DNA from: Candidatus Shapirobacteria bacterium
GTDB lineage: Bacteria > Patescibacteriota > Microgenomatia > 0-14-0-10-38-17
NCBI GenBank assembly: GCA_018052565.1
Contig: JAGPNC010000004.1
Coordinates: 1 to 53,634, forward strand
Length of the DNA stretch: 53,634 nucleotides
Direction: 5' to 3'
Shown piece by piece: positions 2,289 through 49,504 of the stretch. The stretch's first letter is position 1, and every line of letters starts with the position of its first letter. Under the pieces are notes generated by a model that was not told where the DNA came from, did no database searches, and was given only the letters and a program-made list of their open reading frames with translations. The position numbers were made by a program, and so were the translations under genes.

Positions 2289-2785
2289 AGTATCAAGTAT
2301 TAGGTATTAAGTATTAAGTATAAAAAAACAAAAAACAATTAGCTACAAGTTGTCTAAAAAAGCATAACAGTTATTGCTAAAAATGGAAAAACGAGAGCAA
2401 AAAATCAAATCATTCACAGACTTAGTCGCCTGGCAAGAAGCACATAAGTTGGCAATCTTAATCTATAAAGTGACTAAAAACTTTCCGAAAGAAGAAATTT
2501 ATGGTTTAACTAACCAAATCCGAAGAGCGGTAATTTCTATTTCTTCAAATATCGCCGAAGGATTTTCTCGCCAATCAAGGTTAGAAAAAAGGCAGTTTTA
2601 TTACCAAGCGTTGGGATCCTTAACCGAACTCCAAAATCAGCTCCTTTTAGCTAAAGATGTTGGGTATTTAAGCGAAGATAACTTTCAGGAAATTGCTAAT
2701 CAAACTGTCACCGTTAGCAAGTTAATAAATTCCCTTATTAAATTTGTCAGAAATACTTAATACCTAATACATAATACTTAATACT
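2289..2785. mobile_element. GTATTAAGTAT-bounded element, copy B, carrying a four-helix-bundle gene
   Basis: The 33-nt left end AGTATCAAGTATTAGGTATTAAGTATTAAGTAT (2289-2321) matches the reverse complement of 2753-2785 at about 29 of 33 positions. The single internal ORF has its stop codon inside the right repeat. Confidence 0.7.
2374..2760 (+). CDS. Four-helix-bundle protein (23S rRNA intervening-sequence protein / Avd-like family)
   Basis: 128 aa with family hallmarks: FTDLVAWQEAHKL, GLTNQIRRAVISISSNIAEGFSR, YQALGSLTELQNQLLLA. Confidence 0.85.
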   Translation: MLKMEKREQKIKSFTDLVAWQEAHKLAILIYKVTKNFPKEEIYGLTNQIRRAVISISSNIAEGFSRQSRLEKRQFYYQALGSLTELQNQLLLAKDVGYLSEDNFQEIANQTVTVSKLINSLIKFVRNT

Positions 2786-4920: not shown

Positions 4921-5052
4921 AAGTCAAAAATTAAAATTTAAAAGTTAAAATTGCAAGTTAAAATTAAAAATTTTGAATTTTTCATTGGACTTTTGACTTT
5001 TTTCGCCAGAGGCGCACCCGCCTTGGGCGGGAACTTTTGACTTTTAACTTTC
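4921..5052. repeat. AAAGT-word hairpin element, copy 1, with embedded GC hairpin
   Basis: Left arm AAGTCAAAAATTAAAATTTAAAAGTTAAAATTG pairs with right arm CTTTTGACTTTT...ACTTTTGACTTTTAACTTT. A GC insert CGCCAGAGGCGCACCCGCCTTGGGCGGGAAC interrupts the right arm. An SD and ATG at 5075 follow directly. Confidence 0.75.
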
Positions 5053-6223: not shown

Positions 6224-6297
6224 GTATTAAGTATTGCGTATTAAGCAAAATTCAAAAGTTAAAAGTTTTTTACTTTTGAATTTTGACTTTTAACTTT
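6224..6297. repeat. Partial GTATTAAGTAT word block plus short AAAGT-word hairpin
   Basis: GTATTAAGTATTGCGTATTAAG (6224-6245) is followed by the palindrome AAAATTCAAAAGTTAAAAGTTTTTTACTTTTGAATTTTGACTTTTAACTTTT. Confidence 0.7.
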
Positions 6298-6356
6298 TTT
6301 TATACTTGCTGCTTGACACTATTTCCCAAAACGCCCTAATGATAAAATTATCATGT

Positions 6357-6932: not shown

Positions 6933-7585
6933 GTCGCCGAGGCTTCCCCTGCCGCGAGATCGCTACCAGCCCCTTCTCCTTCTGTGGAAGCAGCTTCTGG
7001 CGCCGCCGGCGCTACCTCTTCCTCCTTGGCCTTAGAATTAATAATCGCCACTACCTCTTCTTGATCTGTCTTAACCGCCACTCCCTTAGGCACCTTAAGA
7101 TCTGCAACTCGCACGGCCGCATCAACTTTATCTAAAGAAGAAATATCTACTTCTAGGTGGTCTGGCAAATCCGCTGGCAGCGCTTCCACCTCTACCTCAG
7201 CTAGTGGCTGAACCAAAACCCCCTCATCGCGCATTACCGCCGGCGCTTCACCCACCAAATGAATTGGCACCGCCACCGTCACTTTCTCCTCCAAATTAAC
7301 CTGATGGAAATCAACATGAAGAGGCTGATCGCTCACCGGTTCAATTTGCACATTACCTACCAAAACCGGTCGAACTTCCCCCTCATTAATTGCCAAATCG
7401 ATTAAACCCGTTTCGCCCACCTTTTCAAAAACCTTTAAGAATTCTTTAAGATTAACCTGCAGGCTTTGCGATTTAATTCCCTTACCAAAAAGATTAGCCG
7501 GCAAAATTCCTTCTCGCCGCAACTTTTTAACCTTACGACCGGTAATCTCTCTTTTCTCGGCATTTAATTTCTCCCTTTTGACCAT
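6890..7585 (-). CDS. rplY: 50S ribosomal protein L25 / Ctc family with acidic C-terminal tail
   Basis: REITGRKVKKLRREGILPANLFGKG at the N-terminus, then the Ctc-type beta domain and a long E/A-rich tail. Confidence 0.85.
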   Translation of the reverse strand: MVKREKLNAEKREITGRKVKKLRREGILPANLFGKGIKSQSLQVNLKEFLKVFEKVGETGLIDLAINEGEVRPVLVGNVQIEPVSDQPLHVDFHQVNLEEKVTVAVPIHLVGEAPAVMRDEGVLVQPLAEVEVEALPADLPDHLEVDISSLDKVDAAVRVADLKVPKGVAVKTDQEEVVAIINSKAKEEEVAPAAPEAASTEGEGAGSDLAAGEASATQKSEEEKEENKEG

Positions 7586-14925: not shown

Positions 14926-15215
14926 GTATTAAGTATTAGGTATTAAGTAAAAACGCAAAATGCAAAGATTAGGAATCAAAACCTAGATCAAAAACCAAAA
15001 ATATCTTTGGGCTCTGGTTTTGATCTTTGATCTTGGTTCTACACTTTGATCTTTGATGTTTGGTCTATTCTTTTACTTTTCCGTCAGCCCCGCCGTGGCG
15101 GGGTCAGGATCTTTCTCTATTAGTAAAACAGATCCTGAATCAAGTTCAGGATGACGTTGAATTAAATTTACAACAGCATTGGGAATTATGTCCCAACCAC
15201 TTAATACTTAATACT
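14926..15215. repeat. Composite palindromic MITE-like element, copy D
   Basis: Starts GTATTAAGTATTAGGTATTAAGTA directly after the rnhA-like ATG and ends ACTTAATACTTAATACT. The right inner module 15147-15200 is nearly identical to 652-702. The centre is a GATCAAAG-word hairpin plus the GC hairpin CCCCGCCGTGGCGGGG. Confidence 0.8.
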
Positions 15216-16469
15216 ATTTTTTACCCAATACCCTCCCCCCAAAAGAAGCATCAATAGCTCCGTCCCTAGCGTGATTATCGCCGCCCCTTGCGTCCCCAGG
15301 CGGGGGATCAAAAGCCAATTTCCCCCCAGATTAAAAGCCAAAGCCAAAAGTGAAAACCAGAGTAGCTTTCTTTGCTCTCCTCGCGCTACAAGAAGATAGC
15401 CAAACAAATGATTTAAAAAAACTGCCACCAACGCCGGGCAGAGAAGGCGTAAAATTGGCATCGATGGCAAAAAGGCTTCTCCGCCTAAAATTCTGACCAA
15501 AAAGGGCGCCAAGAGAAAAGTAATGGCACCTAATGCCAAACCTGCTAAAAAAAGCAGCCTGCCTCCTGTTTGCACCATTTCTTTTACTTTCTTTGGCGAG
15601 GCACCGGCCAAAACCGGAAAAAGGCTGTTCATAAAAAAAGCCGCCAAAAGTATTAAGTTGCCGTAAATTTTATAAGCCAAACCATAATAGGCCACATTGA
15701 CGCTTCCCAAAAAGGTTTTTATAAAAAAGTTGTCAATCCCCTCATCATAGGTGGCAAAAACTAATTGCCGGAGGCCTAAAGGGAAAGCTTCTTTAAAGAT
15801 ATTTTTAATTGGCTTCTTTTCCAACAAGGACCATCTAAACTCTCCTTTTTTAAAAATAAGTAAAATCGCCCCCAAACCACTAAGAGCGCCCGCGAGAACC
15901 CAAAAAATTATGAGAAGAACAAGATTGTCCTTTCCTAAGAAAAAAAGAATTAAACTTGCTAATAAAAAAAGAACCGAGGCAAAAACCTCAAAAAAAACCT
16001 TTTTCTCAAAACGCAAATCCGCCATAAAAAGAATATCGGCCGCCGTTCTTAAGTTGAGGAAAAAAAGCGAAAGCGAGGCAATTAAAGCCGCCAACCCCAA
16101 ACCAGCAAACTGGGGAAGAAAAAAAGCCGCCAAATTAAAAACCAAAAAAGAAAACAGAGAAAGTCCCATTTTCAAAACCAAGGCGCTGGTGAAAATTGCC
16201 TGCCGGTTAATCTTTTTCTGGGAAATCATTTTCACCGCCGTGGCGCTGGTGCCAAAATCGGCCAAGTTGAAAGAAAGCAAAACGGCGGTGGTTAAAAATA
16301 AATAATCACCATAGTCTTCTGCTCCCAAAAGTCGTGTTAGAAGAAAAACCGCCAGAAAAGAACAGGCCAGCATTACTCCTCGGCCCAAAATTTGCCAGAG
16401 GGTATTTTTGAAAACGAGGCGAAAGCCGGGAAAGACCATTTTTCTAACCATTTTATTAACGTAAGCCAT
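15201..16469 (-). CDS. Polysaccharide biosynthesis flippase (MOP/Wzx-like)
   Basis: 422 aa, about 12 TM segments, typical MOP flippase layout. The last five codons (NSIKY-stop) are encoded by the repeat terminus. Confidence 0.75.
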   Translation of the reverse strand: MAYVNKMVRKMVFPGFRLVFKNTLWQILGRGVMLACSFLAVFLLTRLLGAEDYGDYLFLTTAVLLSFNLADFGTSATAVKMISQKKINRQAIFTSALVLKMGLSLFSFLVFNLAAFFLPQFAGLGLAALIASLSLFFLNLRTAADILFMADLRFEKKVFFEVFASVLFLLASLILFFLGKDNLVLLIIFWVLAGALSGLGAILLIFKKGEFRWSLLEKKPIKNIFKEAFPLGLRQLVFATYDEGIDNFFIKTFLGSVNVAYYGLAYKIYGNLILLAAFFMNSLFPVLAGASPKKVKEMVQTGGRLLFLAGLALGAITFLLAPFLVRILGGEAFLPSMPILRLLCPALVAVFLNHLFGYLLVARGEQRKLLWFSLLALAFNLGGNWLLIPRLGTQGAAIITLGTELLMLLLGGGYWVKNSIKY

Positions 16470-16513: not shown

Positions 16514-16598
16514 CTAAAAGTTAAAAGTCAAAATTTAAAAGTCAAAAGTACAAGTTAAAATTCAAAAGGAAAATAGAAACTTTTAACTTTTGAATTAA
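16514..16598. repeat. AAAGT-word hairpin element, copy 3
   Basis: CTAAAAGTTAAAAGTCAAAATTTAAAAGTCAAAAGTACAAGTTAAAATTCAAAAGG...AACTTTTAACTTTTGAATT imperfect palindrome. Confidence 0.7.
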
Positions 16599-19081: not shown

Positions 19082-19100
19082 AATAAAAAAGCTGATTAGA

Positions 19101-19212
19101 AAAATTCAAAAGTCAAAATTCAAAAGTCAAAAGTGCAAGTTAAAATTAAAAAGTAAAAAACTTTTAACTTTTGAATTGAAATTTTGCCTTTTGAATTTTA
19201 ACTTTTAACTTT
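19101..19212. repeat. AAAGT-word hairpin element, copy 4
   Basis: AAAATTCAAAAGTCAAAATTCAAAAGTCAAAAGTGCAAGTTAAAATT...CTTTTAACTTTTGAATTGAAATTTTGCCTTTTGAATTTTAACTTTTAACTTT. The SD and ATG follow immediately. Confidence 0.75.
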
Positions 19213-19230
19213 AAAAAGGAGGTGAAGATT

Positions 19231-19608
19231 ATGATCGGTTTTGTTGATGATATCGAAGAAAAAACAAGAAAAAATACCTTTTTCCGCCACGTGCTTTACA
19301 CTGGCCAGCATACCCAGCTGGTGGTGATGAGCCTTTTGCCGGGTGAGGAAATTGGCATGGAAGTGCATCCGGCAGTGGATCAATTCTTCCGCATTGAGGA
19401 AGGAGAGGCAAAGGTGATTATCGACGGCGAAGAGCATGAAGTCCGCGACGGGTTTGCGATTATTGTTCCGGCTGGTTCCCAGCATAACGTGATTAACACC
19501 GGTAGCAACCCCCTCAAACTCTATACTCTTTACTCGCCACCTAATCACCCCGACGGGACGATTCACCGTACCCGTGCCGAAGCGATGGCGGGAGAAGAGG
19601 AGCACTGA
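19231..19608 (+). CDS. Cupin domain protein
   Basis: GEEIGMEVHP...DGFAIIVPAGSQHNVINTG cupin motifs. ATG at 19231 lies 7 nt after AAGGAGG. The track start 19222 is a GTG inside the SD region. Confidence 0.75.
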   Translation: MIGFVDDIEEKTRKNTFFRHVLYTGQHTQLVVMSLLPGEEIGMEVHPAVDQFFRIEEGEAKVIIDGEEHEVRDGFAIIVPAGSQHNVINTGSNPLKLYTLYSPPNHPDGTIHRTRAEAMAGEEEH

Positions 19609-21187: not shown

Positions 21188-21390
21188 ATTTTGGTTCAAA
21201 GCTATTTACGAAGCGATGGGTGATTTTTATTTTAGAAAATAATTTATGGAAAACGATGGCCAAATTTTTAATTTATTTTTAAAGATTTGCGTTTTGGATA
21301 TTTTTTAGGTCAATCAGAATAATTTTGATTTTTCCCCTGACTCGCCGGTGGGCGGACCCTCTTGTTTTTTAATTTCCAGCAGGAGATTTT

Positions 21391-23339: not shown

Positions 23340-24622
23340 TTAAGTATCAAATGAATGACTACACCTTTAATTTAGCAAAACGCATAGGAAATTTTTGCTC
23401 TGCGATTGGTATTAGGTCGCTATCATTGGGCTGAACATACAAAGTTAAGTTTTGTTTTACAACATCAAGTTTAGCTAAAACGTAAGTATTAAGGTATTCT
23501 GGACTTAAGTAAATTTGCTCTTTGAAAATCCGAATCGCTGGTTGTTCTTGCTCGTTGGTTCCAACTAGCCCGATAAGATAGATGGTCATCCTTGGTTTGG
23601 GCTCGAACTCTTTGGCTAAAAGATCTTGGTAGCCAAAGCTCTTATCCAGAAATCTCCCTGGTAACTTTCTTGGTAAGGAGGAGTAGGCTCGATACTCTTT
23701 CTCAAATCTGGCGACTACCTGGTCAATCTCAGCTAGGCTGGTGAAAGTATATCTTTTCCAAACTTTTTTTGGCAAAAACGCTATTAGTTCCTTCTACTGG
23801 ACCATTCATCCATGGTTTTTTGGAGGCGATGAAGAGAGGGGTAGCCCCTAAAAGCAAGAGATATCGGATGAAAGGAGAAATGATGCGGGGATTTTTCCCT
23901 GAAGCAGTAAAACTAAAGCCATTATCTAACCAAAGAGTATCAGGGATTGGTTATTGTTTCCAATCCCGGCTGGTAGTTTCCAGGGCCACCTCCATCCCCT
24001 GGTTGATAACTCTCTTTATTAATCTTAAAGTAGAAGGCTTTTTGTAGAACCTAGTAAAGAAATGGATTGGTTTGCTTGAGCCATAGATGTACTTGTGGCC
24101 AATAAAATCTATTCCCTCTTGGATTTTGCCCAATCCAGAAAGGGTAACTAAAGGATAATGTTGGTTTTCAACTACCTTGAGCATTCCCCGCCTACTCTTA
24201 GGAAAAGATTGATGGATAACTCTGGCCACAAAAGCCCGTTTTAAAGACCGGCTGTTACCATAGAATTTTCCATACTCATCTAATATTTTATCAGGTCCAA
24301 AGAAAAGGCAGAATGGGAAACAAAGCTTTCCCTAATTTTAATCACTCTTTGGGCCTCTACCTTAGTCAGAGAACGTCTTTTGCCTTTGGGCCAACCCCGC
24401 CTGTCCTTGGTAGAGCTACTTTTGCTCTTAGCCCACCGTTGGACAAAAGAACGAGAGACAGCAAGCTTTCTGGCAATTACGGATTTGTCAAGGCACTTTT
24501 GGAAGAAAAGCTCTTTGACTTGAGAGCGCTTCTTTTCTAAAGTCTGCTTGTCATACATAGGGGAATTTTACCCCAACGATGCTGATAGTGGCAAAGACTG
24601 TAGTCATTCATTTGATACTTAA
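23340..24622 (-). mobile_element. Decayed insertion sequence with 24-bp perfect terminal inverted repeats
   Basis: TTAAGTATCAAATGAATGACTACA at 23340-23363 is the exact reverse complement of 24599-24622. The 1283-bp element carries a broken HTH + DDE/integrase-core transposase gene. Confidence 0.8.
23359..24558 (-). pseudogene. Transposase (HTH + rve-like DDE core), disrupted
   Basis: ORF1 is an HTH (VIARKLAVSRSFVQRWAK). A frameshift near 24300 leads to FFGPDKILDEY...IDFIGHKYIYG. An in-frame TAA precedes PIPDTLWLDNGFSF...KKPWMNGPVEGTN. A further frameshift in a poly-A run leads to the C-terminal 138-aa ORF. Confidence 0.75.
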
Positions 24623-29040: not shown

Positions 29041-29706
29041 ATGATTCCCCTTCGCGACCATAATCCCACCCGGCGTTTCCCCTTTATCAATTATCTTTTG
29101 ATAATTGTTAATGTCGCAATTTGTATTTATACCTATACTCTCCCCTTGCCGGCTTTGGAGGATTTTTTCAATCGCTTTGCCCTAACGCCCGCTTTAGTTC
29201 TTCAAGGCCAGAATCTTTTGAGCTTTTTTACCTCGATGTTTTTGCATGCCGGCTTGGGGCATCTTTTGGGGAATATGCTTTTTTTGCATATTTTTGGTGA
29301 TAATCTTGAAGATTACTTTGGCCATTTTCGTTATCTTATTTTTTATCTTGCTTGTGGCTTGGCAGCTGATTTTGCCCAAATTTTTGTTAACCCCATGAGC
29401 AGCATTCCCCAGGTGGGCGCTTCAGGAGCCATTGCCGGAGTGATGGGTGGCTACCTTCTTCTTTATCCAAAACATGAAATTGACATTCTTTTTTCTTTTG
29501 GCTGGTGGTATGATCAAGCCACCTTGCCCGCCTGGACAATGCTTTTCTATTGGTTTTTGGCCCAGTTTTTCGCCGGGGTGGGAAGCTTAGGGATAGCGGA
29601 GGAAGGGGGAGTAGCCTATTTTGCCCATTTAGGCGGCTTTTTGGCAGGGATGATTTTGGTCAAGTTAAGAGGGGGGAGAAAGAGAGTGGCGGAGCTGGAA
29701 GCCTAA
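29041..29706 (+). CDS. Rhomboid family intramembrane serine protease
   Basis: FLHAGLGHLLGNMLFL, GASGAIAGVMGGY, AHLGGFLAG; 6 TM layout. Confidence 0.85.
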   Translation: MIPLRDHNPTRRFPFINYLLIIVNVAICIYTYTLPLPALEDFFNRFALTPALVLQGQNLLSFFTSMFLHAGLGHLLGNMLFLHIFGDNLEDYFGHFRYLIFYLACGLAADFAQIFVNPMSSIPQVGASGAIAGVMGGYLLLYPKHEIDILFSFGWWYDQATLPAWTMLFYWFLAQFFAGVGSLGIAEEGGVAYFAHLGGFLAGMILVKLRGGRKRVAELEA

Positions 29707-29713
29707 AGAGAGA

Positions 29714-30010
29714 GTATTAAGTATTAAGTATAAAAAATATAAAAAAATTAAATCGCTCTATTGCTAAATTTCTGCAAAAAATGCAACTGTCATCATGGGC
29801 CCGTTGCAAATGTTATTTGCTAGGGGGTAAATTATTTTAATTATTCTAATTAACCTAATCTCTAAAGAAAGTCCAAATTGCCAAAAGCCCCAATCCCCAA
29901 ATAATTTTTAATTAGGTTTTGGGATTTCTTTAGGTCAATTAGAATAATTAGAGCAATTAGAACAATTTTTTGATCCGCTATTAATTTCAGGATAACGCTG
30001 GTAACAGGCT
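29714..30010. repeat. Composite element, copy E (left GTATTAAGTAT words, conserved loop hairpin, AATTAGAATAATT hairpin)
   Basis: GTATTAAGTATTAAGTAT at 29714-29731; GCCCGTTGCAAATGTTATTTGCTAGGGGG hairpin; arms 29829-29857 and 29930-29967. The right boundary is diffuse. Confidence 0.7.
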
Positions 30011-30067
30011 TTGGCAACAGAAAGAAAGAATATTGGTTACGCCGGTAAGCCATAATTAAGCCGCATA

Positions 30068-30841
30068 ATGATGAGCCAACTTCTTCTCTCCTGGAACGTT
30101 AACGGGCTTCGGTCTGTTTATCAAAAGGGGGCCTTAAATCAGGTTTTTCAGGAAAAAAAGCCGGATATTTTTTGCCTTCAGGAGGTTAAGGCCTCGCCAG
30201 ACCAATTGCCAGCCAATCTTGCCAAACTTGACGGCTATCATTTTTATTGCCATCCGGCGCAGAAAAAAGGCTATGCCGGCGTGGCTATCTATACGAAAGT
30301 TAAGCCTAAAGGGGTGAGGGAGAGGTTAGGCCTTTCCCGCTTCGACAGCGAAGGCCGATTTTTGGGTCTTAGCTTTGGCTCTTTTTTCTTGGCTAATTTT
30401 TATTTCCCTCACGGCGGCCGCCAAAAAGAAAATTTAGATTACAAACTAGAGGTTTATGATTATTTTTTGCGCTGGATTAGCCAGCATAAGGAAAAGAATT
30501 TAGTTATCGGCGGCGATTTTAACATTGCCCACGAACCTATCGACTTAGCTCGTCCTAAAGAAAACGAGAATAACACCATGTTTACTCCCCAGGAACGAGA
30601 GAAAATTGATGAACTAGTGGGTCTTGGTTTTGTTGACAGCTTTCGGCTTTTTAACAAAGAGAGCGGTCACTACACCTGGTGGCCATACTGGGGAAAAGCG
30701 CGGGAGCGCAATTTAGGCTGGCGGCTGGATTATATTTTTCTCTCTCCTAGTCTAAAGAAGAACCTCAGGGGAGCTTTTATTTTTCCCCAAATTACCGGCT
30801 CTGACCATTGCCCGGTGGGGGCGACTTTCGAGATAAAATAG
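30068..30841 (+). CDS. xth: Exodeoxyribonuclease III (AP endonuclease)
   Basis: SWNVNGLRS, DIFCLQEVK, GGDFNIAHEPIDL, SDHCPV. The stop codon overlaps the first base of the next repeat. Confidence 0.9.
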   Translation: MMSQLLLSWNVNGLRSVYQKGALNQVFQEKKPDIFCLQEVKASPDQLPANLAKLDGYHFYCHPAQKKGYAGVAIYTKVKPKGVRERLGLSRFDSEGRFLGLSFGSFFLANFYFPHGGRQKENLDYKLEVYDYFLRWISQHKEKNLVIGGDFNIAHEPIDLARPKENENNTMFTPQEREKIDELVGLGFVDSFRLFNKESGHYTWWPYWGKARERNLGWRLDYIFLSPSLKKNLRGAFIFPQITGSDHCPVGATFEIK

Positions 30842-31057
30842 TATTAAGTATTAAGTATAAAAAGTGGCCGGGGTATAATTCGTCATCCTGACCCCGTTAC
30901 AAATGATATTTGCTACGGGATAAATTATTCTAATTATTCTAATTGACCTAAGGAAATCCCAAAACCCAATTAAAAATTATTTGGAAATTGGGACTTTTGG
31001 CAATTTGGAATTTTTTTAGAAATTAGGTTAATTAGAATAATTAGAGTAATTGAGTAG
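30841..31057. repeat. Composite element, copy F (same left modules as copy E, hairpin core inverted)
   Basis: GTATTAAGTATTAAGTAT at 30841-30858; GTGGCCGGGGTATAATTCGTCATCCTGACC at 30864-30893; CCCCGTTACAAATGATATTTGCTACGGG hairpin; arms 30922-30951 and 31024-31057. Confidence 0.75.
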
Positions 31058-31065
31058 TTTTTTCA

Positions 31066-31074
31066 TGTTATAAT
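31066..31074 (+). promoter_or_regulatory. Candidate extended -10 promoter (TGTTATAAT) for the rpmH operon
   Basis: TGnTATAAT match ends 8 nt before the rpmH ATG. No convincing -35 element. The spacing suggests a leaderless or very short leader. Confidence 0.35.
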
Positions 31075-31082
31075 GAAAGCCG

Positions 31083-31226
31083 ATGGCGACTAAAAGAACT
31101 TATCAACCAAAAAAGAAGAAAAGAGCGCGTACTCATGGTTTTCGGGCGCGCATGAAAACCCAAACCGGCCGGAGTGTTTTAAAACGCCGCCGCCTAAAGG
31201 GTCGTCAGAGGCTGACCGTGACATGA
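31083..31226 (+). CDS. rpmH: 50S ribosomal protein L34
   Basis: Not in the ORF track (47 aa). My translation is [47 protein letters not shown]. The stop overlaps the rnpA ATG (ATGA). Confidence 0.9.
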
Positions 31227-34071: not shown

Positions 34072-34223
34072 TCTTTAATAATTTTATCATCTTAACCCAA
34101 AATAACCGCCTAATTTGATTTTAGAAAACAGAGGGGATAAACTGGTAATATACATCAGCTATCTTTTTAACCATTGTTTAGTGAAGCTTCAAATCAGGTT
34201 GTAGTCAACCAAGAATGCACTCT

Positions 34224-34387
34224 CAAATTCAAAATTCAAAATGCAAAAGTCAAAATTTCAATTAAAAAGTTAAAAGTTTTTTACTTTTTAATTTTTCCGC
34301 CAGCCCCCGCCACGGCAGGGCCAGAGGCGGACCCGCCTTTGGCGGAAACTTGCACTTTTAACTTTTGACTTTTAACTTTTAACTTTC
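34224..34387. repeat. AAAGT-word hairpin element, copy 5, with embedded GC hairpin
   Basis: CAAATTCAAAATTCAAAATGCAAAAGTCAAAATTTC...ACTTTTAACTTTTGACTTTTAACTTTTAACTTT. The GC insert TTCCGCCAGCCCCCGCCACGGCAGGGCCAGAGGCGGACCCGCCTTTGGCGGAA is homologous to that of copy 1. Confidence 0.75.
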
Positions 34388-34405
34388 TAAAAGGAGGTGA
34401 AGATT

Positions 34406-34669
34406 ATGAGCATTCGGGTGCAAAAAAGAGACGGCCGCTTGGAAGAATTTGATGTTAATAAAATCCGCCAAGGCTTGGCCGCCGCCGGGGCTACCCCCGC
34501 GCAGGTGGAGGCCATTACCAAAGAAGTAGAAAGTTGGGCTAAGGATAACGCTACCAAAGGTTTTATCCGCACCGTCGCCATCAAGGAAAAGGTCTTATCT
34601 TCCCTACGGCTAGTTAATCCTCAAGCCGCCACCGCTTTTGAAAGCTACCAAAAACCCGCGGAGGGCTAA
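34406..34669 (+). CDS. Stand-alone ATP-cone domain protein
   Basis: IRVQKRDGRLEEFDVNKIRQGL...IKEKVLSSL. ATG at 34406 follows AAGGAGG by 7 nt. Confidence 0.75.
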   Translation: MSIRVQKRDGRLEEFDVNKIRQGLAAAGATPAQVEAITKEVESWAKDNATKGFIRTVAIKEKVLSSLRLVNPQAATAFESYQKPAEG

Positions 34670-44498: not shown

Positions 44499-45335
44499 CT
44501 AAAAAAGAAATGATAGCCCTAAAATCAATAAAACAACACCGATGCCGCCTAACCCCAGTGTTACTTCCGGTAGGCCGCTAACTGGCATTTCCTCAGCGGA
44601 AGAAGCGAGCGTGGGAGCTGCCGTTGGCTGAACCTGAGAACCACCGGCCCTAAAAGAAGAAGTGGGGGTAGGGGAGGCCCTTAGGCCCGAGGTCGGCGTG
44701 GGTGTAGAAATTCCTGTCGGCGAAGGAGTCGGCGTGGGCGTAGAAATCCCTGTTGGCAAGGTAGTCGGCGTGGGCGATCCCGTTATCCCGCCGGCAAAGA
44801 TTAAAGTAGCCGCCGAGCGGTTTATAATCACATTAGCACCCCCTTCCTGAAGAGCTGCGGCCTGGGTTTCGGGCGAAAAACTTATCTGTGTATTTTTTTC
44901 TGTTGCTGTGGCCACTGTTTCTTTCACTAAGAAATGAAGGGTAGCCGCCACCCCCTGCCCGCTTTTTGGTCCGCCCGGAGGCGCTCCCAAAATATAAACT
45001 AGTTGTCCCGGAATGCTTGTGTCTTTTTTAAGCTCTACCGGCGAGGAAAAAAATGAGCCCGGGGCAACACTTTTTAAATTTAAATATTCAGTCGCATAGT
45101 TAATATGAAGCTCAATTGCCGCCACCACATTCTCGTTGGTATTAATAACCACGTTTAGATCGATTTCGTCGCCGGGCCGAACTAAACGACTGGCCGGTTC
45201 AAGAGCAATTGTTGTTGCCGGAGCGGCTTTAGTGCGAGTTTCCTGTCGTTGCTTGACCAAGAAAGAAACCCCTATGATCACCCCTATTCCTAAAATTGCC
45301 CCTCCAACCAGCAAAAAATTCTTTTTATTTTTCAT
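44499..45335 (-). CDS. Cohesin-like domain protein with Pro/Thr-rich stalk and C-terminal hydrophobic anchor
   Basis: N-terminal TM segment; cohesin-like beta domain (IDLNVVINTNENVVAAIELHINY...GVAATLHFLVKE); repeated GISTPTPTP stalk; C-terminal GLPEVTLGLGGIGVVLLILGLSFLF. Start at MKNKKNF (45335) avoids overlap with the upstream gene. Confidence 0.65.
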   Translation of the reverse strand: MKNKKNFLLVGGAILGIGVIIGVSFLVKQRQETRTKAAPATTIALEPASRLVRPGDEIDLNVVINTNENVVAAIELHINYATEYLNLKSVAPGSFFSSPVELKKDTSIPGQLVYILGAPPGGPKSGQGVAATLHFLVKETVATATEKNTQISFSPETQAAALQEGGANVIINRSAATLIFAGGITGSPTPTTLPTGISTPTPTPSPTGISTPTPTSGLRASPTPTSSFRAGGSQVQPTAAPTLASSAEEMPVSGLPEVTLGLGGIGVVLLILGLSFLF

Positions 45336-45339
45336 AAAA

Positions 45340-45912
45340 TTATTCTGCTTTTTCTTCAATTTTAATTTTTAGAGGCCGAGCTGACTTTACCACGTTTTTC
45401 TCTTCCCCTATCGCCGCCGCTTGGGTTTGCGCTGAAAAATTGACCAAAGTTTCTCCTTTGTGGCCTTTCTCCTTGACCAAAAAATTAATTAAAACCAAAT
45501 TCCCTTTCCCTTGCCGCGGCTTTTGCGGGGAACACAAAAAAGTAAAAAATGCCTTCCCTTCCGCATTATCAATTCTTTGCTCTGCTACCGTTGCCGGCGT
45601 AAAAAAATCTCCCGGCAAAATGCTGATAATTTCTAAGAATTTATCTTCAAACTCCAGCCCAATTTCTATCCCCGCAAGAATATTTTGCCCCGAGTCGACC
45701 ATCAACATCACCGGTACGGTTTTGCCTGCTTCTGCGACGATTTCCTCCGGCTGCCAATAGAAACTTGTCTGCGCCTGTGGACCAAACCGAGAATTTTTTC
45801 TTAACCACCAATTTAGAAAAAGAACCACTAAGAGAGCTAAAAAAAGCCCTCCCAGAAGAAGGTTTTTCTTCTCCGCGCGCTTTGGTTTTTTTTCCTGATT
45901 AATTTCCTTCAT
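45340..45912 (-). CDS. Cohesin-like domain protein, N-terminally anchored
   Basis: TM segment, then VPVMLMVDSGQNILAGIEIGLEFEDKFLEIISILPGDFF...GNLVLINFLVKEKG (cohesin-like pattern). Confidence 0.6.
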   Translation of the reverse strand: MKEINQEKKPKRAEKKNLLLGGLFLALLVVLFLNWWLRKNSRFGPQAQTSFYWQPEEIVAEAGKTVPVMLMVDSGQNILAGIEIGLEFEDKFLEIISILPGDFFTPATVAEQRIDNAEGKAFFTFLCSPQKPRQGKGNLVLINFLVKEKGHKGETLVNFSAQTQAAAIGEEKNVVKSARPLKIKIEEKAE

Positions 45913-46021: not shown

Positions 46022-49000
46022 CTATTGAGAACTATCCCAGTAGGGGTCGAGATTTTCCAAAAAGATCCGCACTTCTTCGCTGTCGCTAAAAAGACGATGA
46101 GGCGAACTCTGCGGCCCAAGAAAAGTTGATTCCTTCTCCAGCTTGATTAAATTAGTAATTGTCGTTGGCACCGGTCCGTCTAGTTGATTATAACGAAGAT
46201 GTAAGCCTATCAACGTTGTCAAATTGCCGATTGCTTCGGGAATGTGGCCGGAAAGCTGGTTGTCATCAAGATGAAGGCTGGTTAATTGGGTAAGGTTGCC
46301 GATTGTTTCGGGGATGGAACCGGAAAGCTGGTTGGTAAAAAGATAAAGCTCGGTTAATTGGGTAAGGTTGCCGATTGTTTCGGGGATGGAACCGGAGAGC
46401 TGGTTAGCGTAAAGCCAAAGTTCTTTCAGTTGGGACAAGCCGCCGATTGTTTCGGGGATGGAACCGGAAAGCTGGTTATTGTTAAGATAAAGGTCGGTTA
46501 ATTGAGTAAGGTTGCCGATTGTTTCGGGGATGGAACCGGAAAGCTGGTTAGCGTGAAGCCAAAGTTCTTTCAGTTGGGACAAGTTGCCGATTGTTTCGGG
46601 GATGGAACCGGAAAGCTGGTTATTGTTAAGATAAAGGCCGGTTAATTGGGTAAGGTTGCCGATGCTGGCCGGGATAGAACCGGAGAGTTGGTTATAAAAA
46701 AGATAAAGTTCTCTCAGTTGGGACAAGTTGCCGATTGTTTCGGGGATAGGATCGGAAAACTGGTTATTGTCAAGATAAAGGCCGGTTAATTGGGTAAGGT
46801 TGCCGATGCTGGCCGGGATAGAACCGGAGAGTTGGTTAGTGCCTAGATAAAGTTCTCTTAGTTGGGACAAGTTGCCGATTGTTTCGGGGATGGAACCGGA
46901 AAGCTCGTTAAGCTGAAGATAAAGTCCTTTTAGTTGGGACAAGTTGCCGATTGTTTCGGGGATGGAACCGGAAAGTTGATTGCCGTTAAGACGAAGATTA
47001 GCCACATGGCCGTCTTCACAAGTCACTCCATACCAGCCGCACGGCTTGGTATTCAAATCCCACCTATTATCCCAGCCTGAACCGTTAGTTTGCCTGTATA
47101 AGTCCAGAAGCGCCGCCTTTTCTTCGGCAGAAACTTCCCCCTCTTCGATAGGGGTAATTGACACCGGCGCTGTGGTTGGCGTAGGCGTGACCGTCGGTGG
47201 CTTTTCGGTCACTGTCTCCCCCTGTTTATCAAAATTCTCCACCAACAAAGCGTAATCAAAAATATCAATTCGCCCATTGCCGTTGAGGTCGGGCGCCAAA
47301 CCCGTTTCTTCTTTGCCAAAATCTTCCAAAAGAGCATTATAATCAAAAATATCAATTTTGTTGTTATTGTCAATATCGCCCGCTAAAAGCTGGCCCACCG
47401 CCACGGCCTTAATCTCCCCCTTGTTTAAGGATACCTCCGGAATGACTCGGCTTAAATGAACCGGCCCCTTAACCCAAAAGGAAGTATTTTCCAAATCAGA
47501 ATTCTGGTCGCTCATAATTTGTACCGGCGAAAAACCTTCGGCGCCAATTTCTAACTGGTAAGAGGCAATTTCTCCCCCCGAAGCATTATAAATTTTTACC
47601 GTTACCAAAGAATGATTATCCTGACGATTTTGTAATTTTAAATTAATTTGAAAAGCAGGATGATCGGGGTGGGGAGTAACTATTGGCGTAGGAGCAGGCG
47701 TCGCCGTTGGCGCAGGGGTAGGCGTCGCCGTTGGCGCAGGAGTAGGGGTAGAGAGGGGAGTTGGAGAAAGAGTAACGGTCGGAGTTGGCGTAATTGAAGT
47801 CGATGGAAAAGAGGCCGCTCGCTCCATTGCCGCCAACACATCTATTAGCCCCGCTCCATATTCCAATTCATTGTAATTAGGAATCGCTACCTTATTTGCC
47901 GTCTCTTCTAAAATGCTTTTAACATCTATTGGCGAAAGATTGGGATTAATACTTAGCATTAATGCTATCGTCGCAGTCACATGCGGCGTAGCCATTGAAG
48001 TCCCTTGGTAAAGAATCAGGGGAAATATATACCAACCAGGTCTACTGGGATCGGGGATATAACAATAATAATATTCTCCCCCTGAAAGTACGTAAAAAAC
48101 CTCTGTAAAATTTTCGAAATCGTTAGGAAAAATAGTCTGTTGAACAATGCCATCAGCCAGCCCGTCTTCGTTTTGGTCCCATAAATCATCCTCATTATCG
48201 TTAAATATTTGTCCCCCGGGGGCAACCAAATCCAAGGCTTCGCCATAATCGGAATAATAAGCCCTAACGTTATCCCAACGCGTTGCCCCCACGGCAATTG
48301 CTTCCTCATACTTAGCCGGATAAAGCATGTTATAAGCGGAAGGAGCTCCTCGGCTGGCGTCGTTTCCCGAAGCAGCCACTACCACTATTCCCGCCTCTAC
48401 TGCCCTTTCAATAGCCTCATGCAATGTCTCTGCTGCGAATGATTGTCCGAAACTCATATTAATAATATCGGCGCCCTTGCTCACCGCATAGTCAATTCCT
48501 TCAATTATGTCTGAAGTATAACCTTCGCCATTTGAATCCAAAGACTTAATAGGGATAATCGTTATTCTTGGGGCAATACCAGCAGCATGGGCGCCATTGT
48601 TTGTCTCTTGAGCAATAGTGGCCGTTACGTGCGTTCCATGACCATGATCATCATTTGGATGGCTATTCCTAATCGTTTCCACGTATCCGCCATTATTATC
48701 AAAAACGCTGGTAATTCTCCGCGGCGAGGAAAAATTAGTGTACGCCAATTCGGGCGCTTTTCCGTATTGAGCTGAACCATTGTTATAATCCTCGAAGGCC
48801 ACCCCCGTATCAATCACCGCCACCTTAATTTCCGGGCCACCCCCTTGACGAGCAACCTCAAACTCTTCCCATGCCTGAGGCAAGCTAATTCTTTCCAAGT
48901 TCCACTGGAAATAGTCCTTTGGGGATTTATCGCCTCCCTCGCCAACAAGATAAGGATCGTTTGGTGCCCATAGAAGGTGAACCGGGTAATTGGGTTCCGC

Positions 49001-49504
49001 CACCACCACCTCTCTTTCTTGAGAATAATCTACAATTGCTTCGGCCAGATTTACTTCTTCGGGAAGTTCGACCATTACCGTTCTCTCGGCCACTCTTGTT
49101 CTTCCTAAAGCCTCCATCCTTTCTATCCCCAGCTTTTTGTTTAAATCAGTTACGCCGCTCATCCCCTTAACGGCAATCCCTCCTTTTCGAAGAACCACTT
49201 TCTTGCCAAGGAGACTCACGGAAATTTCTTTTTCTTCCTCAATAACTGGCTTTTTCTTAAAAGTAATGATGATTTGTCTTGGAATCTTCTCTTCCTTTAA
49301 AAACCGTCCCGCCGGCGAAATTCTTGAAACATCTTGGGAAATTTCAAAAGGAGAAGGTGCTTGCGCAAAAATCAATTTTGGGGAATAATTCCCCGAAGCA
49401 AAAAAACTTACCGCCACTGCCAAAAATATCGCCGCAGAGAAAAACCGCTTTGCTCTTAAAAAAGCGGGGGTATTTTCTCCTCTCTTGTCATTCTTGTCTT
49501 CCAC
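46022..49504 (-). CDS. Surface S8 (subtilisin-like) peptidase fused to dockerin-like repeats and 12 plant-type leucine-rich repeats
   Basis: 1160 aa. Catalytic triad contexts: VIDTGV, HGTHVTA, GTSMATPHV. PT-rich linkers. Two EF-hand-like repeats: DIDNNNKIDIFDYNALL and DLNGNGRIDIFDYALL. LRRNT-like cap CGWYGVTC, followed by 24-aa LxxLxxLxLxxNQLSGSIPETIGN repeats. Confidence 0.85.
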   Translation of the reverse strand: MEDKNDKRGENTPAFLRAKRFFSAAIFLAVAVSFFASGNYSPKLIFAQAPSPFEISQDVSRISPAGRFLKEEKIPRQIIITFKKKPVIEEEKEISVSLLGKKVVLRKGGIAVKGMSGVTDLNKKLGIERMEALGRTRVAERTVMVELPEEVNLAEAIVDYSQEREVVVAEPNYPVHLLWAPNDPYLVGEGGDKSPKDYFQWNLERISLPQAWEEFEVARQGGGPEIKVAVIDTGVAFEDYNNGSAQYGKAPELAYTNFSSPRRITSVFDNNGGYVETIRNSHPNDDHGHGTHVTATIAQETNNGAHAAGIAPRITIIPIKSLDSNGEGYTSDIIEGIDYAVSKGADIINMSFGQSFAAETLHEAIERAVEAGIVVVAASGNDASRGAPSAYNMLYPAKYEEAIAVGATRWDNVRAYYSDYGEALDLVAPGGQIFNDNEDDLWDQNEDGLADGIVQQTIFPNDFENFTEVFYVLSGGEYYYCYIPDPSRPGWYIFPLILYQGTSMATPHVTATIALMLSINPNLSPIDVKSILEETANKVAIPNYNELEYGAGLIDVLAAMERAASFPSTSITPTPTVTLSPTPLSTPTPAPTATPTPAPTATPAPTPIVTPHPDHPAFQINLKLQNRQDNHSLVTVKIYNASGGEIASYQLEIGAEGFSPVQIMSDQNSDLENTSFWVKGPVHLSRVIPEVSLNKGEIKAVAVGQLLAGDIDNNNKIDIFDYNALLEDFGKEETGLAPDLNGNGRIDIFDYALLVENFDKQGETVTEKPPTVTPTPTTAPVSITPIEEGEVSAEEKAALLDLYRQTNGSGWDNRWDLNTKPCGWYGVTCEDGHVANLRLNGNQLSGSIPETIGNLSQLKGLYLQLNELSGSIPETIGNLSQLRELYLGTNQLSGSIPASIGNLTQLTGLYLDNNQFSDPIPETIGNLSQLRELYLFYNQLSGSIPASIGNLTQLTGLYLNNNQLSGSIPETIGNLSQLKELWLHANQLSGSIPETIGNLTQLTDLYLNNNQLSGSIPETIGGLSQLKELWLYANQLSGSIPETIGNLTQLTELYLFTNQLSGSIPETIGNLTQLTSLHLDDNQLSGHIPEAIGNLTTLIGLHLRYNQLDGPVPTTITNLIKLEKESTFLGPQSSPHRLFSDSEEVRIFLENLDPYWDSSQ
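46157..47008 (-). repeat. Tandem 72-bp (144-bp super-period) coding repeats encoding the LRR array
   Basis: GTTGCCGATTGTTTCGGGGATGGAACCGGAAAGCTGGTT recurs about every 72 bp. Units alternate between LTQLT..LYLNNNQ and LSQLKELWL.ANQ types. Confidence 0.85.

Follow-up and report, generated by a model that had tools for sequence, protein, structure and literature searches.

Hairpins of opposite orientation on either side of xth in a Candidatus Shapirobacteria contig: probable independent copies of a palindromic intergenic repeat

The contig JAGPNC010000004.1 of a Candidatus Shapirobacteria bacterium (53.6 kb, 42.4% G+C; hereafter the window, whose positions serve as coordinates throughout) carries two long hairpins, here called E and F, in the intergenic spacers on the two sides of the exodeoxyribonuclease III gene xth, and their cores lie in opposite orientation. 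The question raised by this locus is whether the opposite orientation reflects a segment that inverts in place, possibly as a switch ahead of the rpmH operon, or separate copies of one repeat that were laid down either way round, both of which had been put forward in a preliminary description of the sequence. We think that E and F are probably independent copies in arbitrary orientation, with no programmed switch involved. The best reading of the pair is that of two copies of one subfamily of a mosaic, palindromic, AT-rich intergenic repeat that resembles both the ERIC/REP-type repeats and the intervening sequences (IVSs) of 23S rRNA genes.

Orientation of the two hairpins around xth

The window encodes an ordinary Patescibacteria-type set of housekeeping genes, of which 51 reading frames were scanned against Pfam. 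The genes at the locus are, in order, a rhomboid gene (29041-29706), xth (30068-30841, plus strand; PF03372, E = 4.9e-36, with homologues that carry the exodeoxyribonuclease III name) and rpmH (31083-31226), and composite repeats occupy both spacers between them. Downstream of rpmH lie rnpA, yidD, yidC and a jag-like gene with KH/R3H domains, which bears out both the gene names assigned to this operon and the placement of F directly upstream of it.

Hairpin E (29830-29967) consists of arms built as arrays of nonamers (29830-29858 and 29930-29967) around an asymmetric core (29859-29929), and hairpin F (30923-31051) of arms at 30923-30951 and 31023-31051 around a core at 30952-31022; in each hairpin the inverted repeat of the arms is 29 nt long, 86-93% complementary and interrupted by 71 nt. 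The two hairpins form an inverted repeat of 129 nt, 29830-29958 against 30923-31051, which is 91% complementary over a separation of 964 nt (BLAST E = 2e-45). Since the hairpin arms read alike in both directions, orientation was scored on the 71-nt cores alone. The core 29859-29929 matches the reverse complement of 30952-31022 at 63 of 71 positions without gaps (score 110), while the direct alignment scores 32, and the self-complementarity of each core is low, with scores of 28 and 38 against its own reverse complement. The low self-complementarity, together with the reverse and direct scores, indicates that the difference in orientation between E and F is genuine, and the proposed inverted match of 29858-29929 with 30952-31023 is thereby upheld. 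The swap of the arm junctions, AACC/GGTC in E and GACC/GGTT in F, is likewise present in the sequence.

Both hairpins are predicted to fold stably as RNA, with the strand bias reversed between them. Hairpin E reaches -33.0 kcal/mol on the plus strand and -42.6 on the minus strand (z -4.5 and -5.5), and hairpin F -44.8 kcal/mol on the plus strand and -38.1 on the minus strand (z -7.2 and -6.7), so that the minus strand is favoured by 9.6 kcal/mol in E and the plus strand by 6.7 in F.

To the left of each hairpin lie further modules which, as had been described, are co-oriented in the two copies. The heptamer module (AGTATTA)n of copy E (29713-29736, plus strand) begins 6 nt past the rhomboid stop codon and is a direct repeat, at 100%, of the heptamer module of copy F (30840-30863, plus strand), whose first two bases fall within the TAG stop codon of xth (30839-30841); the module has 7 matches in the window against 0 expected. 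A second direct repeat of 70 nt (29789-29858 against 30882-30951, 87%) contains, in copy E, the GTCATCATG word and a small CCCGTT..GCAAAT/ATTTGC hairpin (29789-29827, plus strand) and, in copy F, the GTCATCCTG word with the corresponding small hairpin (30882-30920, plus strand). Among the words of these elements, GTATTAAGTATTAAGTATAAAA has 7 matches against 0 expected and AATTATTCTAATT has 13 against 0.36 expected.

The locus in a second assembly and in a sister lineage

A contig of 1,211 bp from a second public assembly (L001) is base-for-base identical to 29889-31099 of the window and spans half of E, xth and all of F into rpmH, with the orientations found in the window. It bears on the most trivial explanation of the locus, namely an artefact produced by mis-joining at near-identical inverted repeats during metagenome assembly. 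Palindromes do disturb assemblers, and L001 itself begins at 29889, only 5 nt from the centre of palindrome E, which fits the tendency of assemblers to break at long palindromes; in practical terms, L001 illustrates how such elements break short-read assemblies. However, this separate public record agrees with the window from the E core to rpmH, the 8 differences among the 71 core positions and the additional differences in the arms mark E and F as two distinct sequences and not one copy placed twice, and a related genome independently carries F in the window orientation. We regard an assembly artefact as highly improbable.

This related genome (L198) is the sole close relative that we found, with an xth 89% identical and the rhomboid-xth-rpmH order kept. 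A scan of JGI metagenomes with xth gave best relatives of only 59% identity and no strain-level copy of the locus, and searches for exact protein matches of the rhomboid, rpmH and the 256-aa xth variant returned none. The xth-rpmH spacer of L198 contains an orthologue of F (2352-2530) which is co-oriented with F, 92% identical to it and longer by 22 nt in the loop, and the alignment runs unbroken through left arm, core, TGTTATAAT box and rpmH. The F orientation has thus been kept since the two lineages split. Missing from the same spacer are both left modules of the window F, the AGTATTAAG heptamers as well as the GTCATC/CCCGTT module. In the rhomboid-xth spacer of L198 the situation is different, as the heptamer module is present and hairpin E and the GTCATC/CCCGTT module are absent. 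A relic of the hairpin in that spacer was considered and ruled out, the sequence offering just a 9-bp inverted pair whose fold is not significant against shuffled sequence (z -1.6).

The absence of the left modules at the F locus of L198 indicates that these modules are gained and lost independently of the hairpin, and from the sequence comparison they are lineage-specific additions. Their shared orientation in copies E and F is therefore uninformative on whether the hairpin has flipped. This matters for the view that the segment between the ~30-bp inverted arms inverted in place, whether through a programmed recombinase switch or through a rare RecA or template-switch event that became fixed, since the opposite cores next to co-oriented left modules had counted in its favour. 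That view can also draw on the 29-nt inverted arms themselves (86-93% complementary, 71 nt apart) and on a promoter-like TTGCCA-16-AATAAT match in the core (10 of 12 positions), which in E faces xth and in F faces away from rpmH. The F orthologue of L198 does not keep this match, as its sequence reads AATAAG followed at once by a 22-nt insertion, and this makes a promoter in the core doubtful.

The extent of the reversed unit also speaks against inversion in place. Hairpin E matches the reverse complement of the L198 orthologue of F at 136 of 147 positions (92.5%), more closely than it matches that of the window F (120 of 137). Its right arm is identical to the reverse complement of the left arm of the L198 orthologue over 48 of 48 positions, reaching the outermost unit, which means that the entire palindrome is reversed in E and not a core between fixed arms. 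The reversed unit is accordingly not bounded by the 13-mers across which a flip had been proposed, and the outermost arm units are included in it. Furthermore, F is found in a single orientation across the window, L001 and L198, and E in the same orientation in the window and L001. A search of the 51 reading frames covering the 53.6-kb window against Pfam detected no recombinase, invertase or transposase. We consider inversion in place, of either kind, quite improbable, and the invertible switch of the preliminary description is not borne out; its other option, independent insertion in either orientation, is favoured by the co-oriented F without E in L198, by the reversal of the whole element, by the lineage-specific left modules and by two features of the family described below, its unbiased orientation on a folding-energy proxy and the direct as well as inverted arrangement of neighbouring copies.

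The same features separate the locus from the invertons, such as fimS, hin and those of Bacteroides type. Invertons are served by a dedicated tyrosine or serine recombinase, usually encoded next to them. Like them, E and F have short inverted repeats that flank a segment seen in two orientations, with a promoter-like word inside. Unlike them, the two orientations occur at two loci instead of one, no recombinase was found nearby, the F orientation is stable between lineages and the whole palindrome is reversed, arms included.

The hairpin family across Patescibacteria

The wider family was surveyed in a species-representative genome collection with the exact arm 18-mer TAATTATTCTAATTRACC as seed, and two-armed hairpins were called at a threshold of 12 for the partner-arm score. 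The matches listed comprise more than 116 loci, nearly all in Patescibacteria. They fall in Yanofsky-, Staskawicz-, Doudna-, Zambryski-, Portnoy-, Sungii-, Magasanikii-, Roizman-, Curtiss-, Levyi- and Berkelbacteria and in Microgenomates, and also include many metagenome-assembled genomes labelled Saccharibacteria. The arms are tandem 9-mers (CTAATTNNN, mirrored as NNNAATTAG), while the centre is variable between copies and slightly asymmetric. Among the matches listed, the spacing from one CTAATT to the next is 9 nt in 370 cases, with 7 nt as the runner-up (57 cases). The commonest arm units are CTAATTATT, CTAATTGAC and CTAATTAAC, and inside the last unit the consensus reads CTAA-AT-AAT-CCCAAT.

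Two-armed hairpins number 74 among the matches listed, with a median length of 118 nt; 56 of them sit in co-directional spacers, five in convergent and five in divergent ones, and five overlap a reading frame. They fill their spacers tightly, starting at a median of 8 nt past the upstream stop codon and ending at a median of 14 nt before the downstream start codon. The stop codon is often part of the first unit, as TAA opens the first TAATT unit in family members elsewhere. From the placement between co-directional genes, the hairpins are presumably transcribed within operon mRNAs.

Such a position might suggest that the elements serve the host in an orientation-dependent manner, either as terminator of the upstream gene or as promoter of the downstream gene, and that regulation calls for different settings in E and F. 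Several features agree with this idea: a T-run follows the right arm on the plus strand in copies A (a third hairpin of the window, described below), E and F regardless of core orientation, TAnAAT words fill the 3' arms in 40 of 55 family members, and a Shine-Dalgarno-like word precedes just 5 of 55 downstream genes so close behind the hairpin end. Over the family, however, T-runs occur on the sense side in 13 of 55 members and on the antisense side in 14, and a terminator scan called none of the hairpins. Intrinsic (Rho-independent) terminators combine a short GC-rich stem with a U-tract on the transcribed strand. On these grounds an intrinsic terminator was ruled out, despite the plus-strand T-runs of A, E and F. 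As to a promoter, TAnAAT is inherent to the repeat unit, and in the arms no -35 partner at promoter spacing exceeds a 9-of-12 match. Finally, the asymmetry of folding energy with respect to transcription is unbiased among 55 members from other genomes (27 against 24, median -0.55 kcal/mol). By this folding proxy, orientation is random among copies with distinct flanks, the outcome that had been named beforehand as refuting a switch. A host function with meaningful orientation seems to us unlikely as well.

Neighbouring copies occur in other genomes in either arrangement, direct in L038, L069 and L073 and inverted in L028 and L052. L028, which carries the family, also has a 243-nt inverted repeat (184-426 against 7113-7355) that is 98% identical across 6.7 kb and is possibly a recent copy or a substrate for inversion.

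The position of 9-mer arrays beside rpmH also brings DnaA boxes to mind. This candidate was rejected by reasoning, since arrays of this kind occupy ordinary spacers of operons in many genomes; no dnaA gene turned up among the window reading frames in the general Pfam scan.

A search of IMG/VR for a phage origin gave one exact match for the arm 18-mer and none for the E/F core. Rfam, at gathering thresholds, reports no family in the whole window. In the literature searched, there was no description of this hairpin family, no match to the arm sequence, and nothing linking Patescibacteria, intergenic palindromes and IVP genes.

Link to 23S_rRNA_IVP genes

In eight loci (L029, L037, L047, L048, L079, L081, L091 and L104), a reading frame lies between E/F-type arrays that are spaced ~370-490 nt apart. 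The frames encode 122-129 aa (89 aa in L091), are co-oriented with at least one neighbouring gene and show the four-helix-bundle sequence pattern of PF05635, the 23S_rRNA_IVP family (hereafter IVP), which Pfam confirmed for two of them, L029 and L081. Neither the window nor the IVP-bearing loci gave an rRNA match. The motif at the IVP start codon, ATG[TAC]C[CTA]AA (encoding MSN, MTN or MPN), occurs no further than 45 nt from 69 of the 208 array junctions, where shuffling expects 2.1, and at most of these junctions no reading frame follows the motif. The retention of the start motif, mostly without its frame, makes the short hairpins look like deletion derivatives of IVP cassettes. Since the stem repeat itself includes the motif, the observation supports this derivation without proving it.

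The rRNA genes of candidate phyla radiation bacteria have been reported to contain IVP reading frames in their insertions (PMC11270868). We tentatively propose, as a possibility held with low confidence, that E and F are members lacking a reading frame of a Patescibacteria-wide set of intercistronic palindromes whose fuller forms are IVP cassettes, and which would colonise operon spacers in the manner in which IVSs colonise rRNA. Their spread would be helped by the IVP protein or else by a conserved factor of the host which recognises the CTAATT units, and RNase III would cut them out of, or within, operon transcripts.

Origin and possible role of the copies

Returning to E and F as independent copies, the following history would account for the locus. 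Near-identical arms in either reading direction would leave a copy free to be laid down, or to recombine with an adjoining module, in either orientation. F would be the older resident copy of the xth-rpmH spacer, its orientation unchanged since the split from the sister lineage, and E a separate whole-element copy of the same subfamily, reversed, in the rhomboid-xth spacer. The co-oriented left modules, made up of the AGTATTA heptamers and of the small hairpin beside the GTCATC word, would have been joined on independently, most likely by homologous exchange in shared TAATTATTCTAATT units; the junction between left module and hairpin indeed falls in TAATTATTCTAATT units, which are present in both arms. 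Independent joining of modules in this way yields a mosaic that resembles a flip of the core alone. More generally, copies may arise by a copying mechanism that leaves no target duplication, complemented by homologous exchange among the shared units. On inspection, E, F, A and the 55 family members start and end in AATT, and no direct repeat was seen on either side of them.

Several considerations weigh against this account. Neither a target-site duplication nor a transposase is visible, and the comparison is limited to one close relative. The single orientation is seen in assembled sequences, where low-frequency flipping would not show. E, F and the L198 orthologue of F are roughly equidistant in sequence (87.6-92.5%), so that E might be older than the split of the two lineages, with a later loss in L198, instead of being a new insertion. 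As for the family, seeding the census with an exact 18-mer from this window biases it to close arm variants, and orientation within the census is a folding-energy proxy and not core homology.

With regard to function, a stem region of ~30-60 AU-rich bp would form from either orientation, and the elements might thus act as orientation-independent RNA punctuation. The most plausible activity would be that of RNase III targets, by analogy with the IVSs of 23S rRNA; alternatively, the elements may be merely tolerated selfish DNA. A role at the RNA level is purely inferred, which also counts against the account given here.

Comparison with known repeats

The ERIC, REP/BIME, Correia, RPE, BOX and RUP repeats are imperfect palindromes of ~100-150 nt, present in many copies and restricted to intergenic spacers, most of which are transcribed. 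The E/F family resembles them in length and copy number, in being palindromic and intergenic, in occurring in either orientation, in being present or absent at orthologous spacers and in forming mosaics with small modules, as BIMEs and BOX elements do. It differs in its arms, which are tandem 9-mer arrays (CTAATTNNN) without a unique consensus, in the recurrence of its units across many Patescibacteria lineages instead of one genus or family, and in the PF05635 gene carried by its longer relatives. By the defining features of each of these families, the E/F elements do not belong to any of them. REP/BIME elements proper have a GC-rich palindrome of 20-40 nt with a conserved GTAG or CGTC head and a RAYT transposase in the genome. 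The E/F family shares with them the extragenic location, the use of either orientation and the combination into mosaics, whereas its arms are very AT-rich and have no GTAG or CGTC head; no RAYT or Y1 transposase was found among the 51 scanned reading frames of the window.

Terminal inverted repeats and a high copy number (A, E and F as full copies beside one relic in the window, more than 116 loci among the matches listed) are reminiscent of miniature inverted-repeat transposable elements. In contrast to those, no TA or other target-site duplication is visible at the ends, and the longer relatives encode a frame with the PF05635 pattern and not a known transposase. The IVSs of 23S rRNA, which are excised from the transcript by RNase III, offer the other close parallel: they too have a long inverted-repeat stem, a variable centre and, optionally, a gene of ~120 aa for a PF05635 four-helix bundle, and the window hairpins fold with z from -4.5 to -7.2. 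Unlike IVSs, the E/F elements lie between protein-coding genes and not in helices of 23S or 16S rRNA.

Taken at the locus itself, the observation that started this work is ordinary, as two copies of a palindromic repeat in opposite orientation at two loci are no evidence of a phase-variable switch before the rpmH-rnpA-yidD-yidC operon. The family, with its nonamer-array arms, its breadth across Patescibacteria and its IVP-bearing forms, appears to be a new variant among the known intergenic repeats. A single architecture of tandem 9-mer arms, variable centre and optional PF05635 gene recurs in operon spacers of many Patescibacteria lineages, where little room is left between it and the stop codon before it or the start codon after it, mostly without a Shine-Dalgarno word. 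If the elements are processed or bound, they would be part of the punctuation of operons in these minimal genomes. They also provide a handle on the function of the large 23S_rRNA_IVP/Avd-like protein family and on the origin of rRNA intervening sequences, and inverted pairs such as E and F could mediate inversion of the gene between them.

Other repeats of the window

The census of the window gave three full copies of the hairpin (A, E and F) and one relic. Hairpin A (468-619) has the arm type and orientation of E and a different core; its alignment with E scores 179 in direct and 90 in reversed orientation, and its RNA fold reaches -39.1 on the plus and -47.8 on the minus strand. It is nested in an outer palindrome with heptamer arms at 306-328 and 700-722. 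The relic is a degenerate solo arm (TTAGGTCAATCAGAATAATT) of the family at 21260-21324, 75% identical to part of F. A composite spacer at 14926-15215, with heptamer arms at its bounds, has its right-hand module in common with copy A (15131-15231 is 80% identical to 635-735). Modules are nested within one another in A, E, F and 14926-15215, of which copy A (306-722) and 14926-15215 take the form of onion-like palindromes with the heptamer arms outermost. The AGTATTAAG heptamer module begins at or includes the neighbouring stop codon (TAG-TATTAAG) at 30839-30841 and, on the minus strand, at 718-720 and 15201-15203.

The Memo/AMMECR1 gene next to copy A has genus-level relatives in three genomes (L199, L200 and L201, proteins 74-76% identical). 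In the spacer downstream of this gene the set of palindromes differs in each lineage and includes no TAATT hairpin, and nothing but the stop-codon module CTTAATACT is retained, in L200 and L201. The differing palindromes point to a rapid turnover of the spacer content.

The window also has an IVP gene of its own (2383-2760, plus strand; PF05635, E = 3.5e-39), of the four-helix-bundle type. The unit of 2288-2785 is boxed by inverted repeats of 33-38 nt made of AGTATTA heptamers (AGTATTAAG-type arms; 2288-2325 and 2752-2785, 91-93% identical), and it takes up the whole spacer between two divergent genes, one for Memo/AMMECR1 and the other for a class-I aminoacyl-tRNA synthetase of the Ile/Leu/Met/Val type.

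Directly to the right of hairpin F, the TGTTATAAT sequence forms an extended -10-like box (31067-31075) which, together with its left flank, is conserved in L198 and is followed by rpmH (31067-31226 for box and gene, plus strand). The rpmH start lies 7 nt past the box, with no Shine-Dalgarno sequence in between (31067-31085), which suggests that the rpmH mRNA may be leaderless. In L198 there are 13 additional nucleotides before rpmH (2547-2570), GGAG among them.

A second family of intergenic palindromes, with arms of tandem AAAAGTY / RACTTTT units, occupies 4921-5051, 6246-6298, 16514-16596, 19097-19234 and 34222-34409. The sequence AAAGGAGGTGAAGATTATG stands directly after two of its copies, and the same unit type also occurs in the relative L199 and in the Microgenomates loci L012 and L041. 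An inverted repeat of 24 nt without mismatch, which contains an AGTATCA word (23340-23363 and 24599-24622), encloses ~1.2 kb with three small reading frames that have no Pfam match. Repeats of a different nature, with a period of ~72 nt, are found at 46182-46998, where they correspond to the leucine-rich repeats of a 1,160-aa subtilase/leucine-rich repeat/dockerin protein (46022-49504, minus strand), whose gene is adjoined by two cohesin-domain genes (44499-45912).

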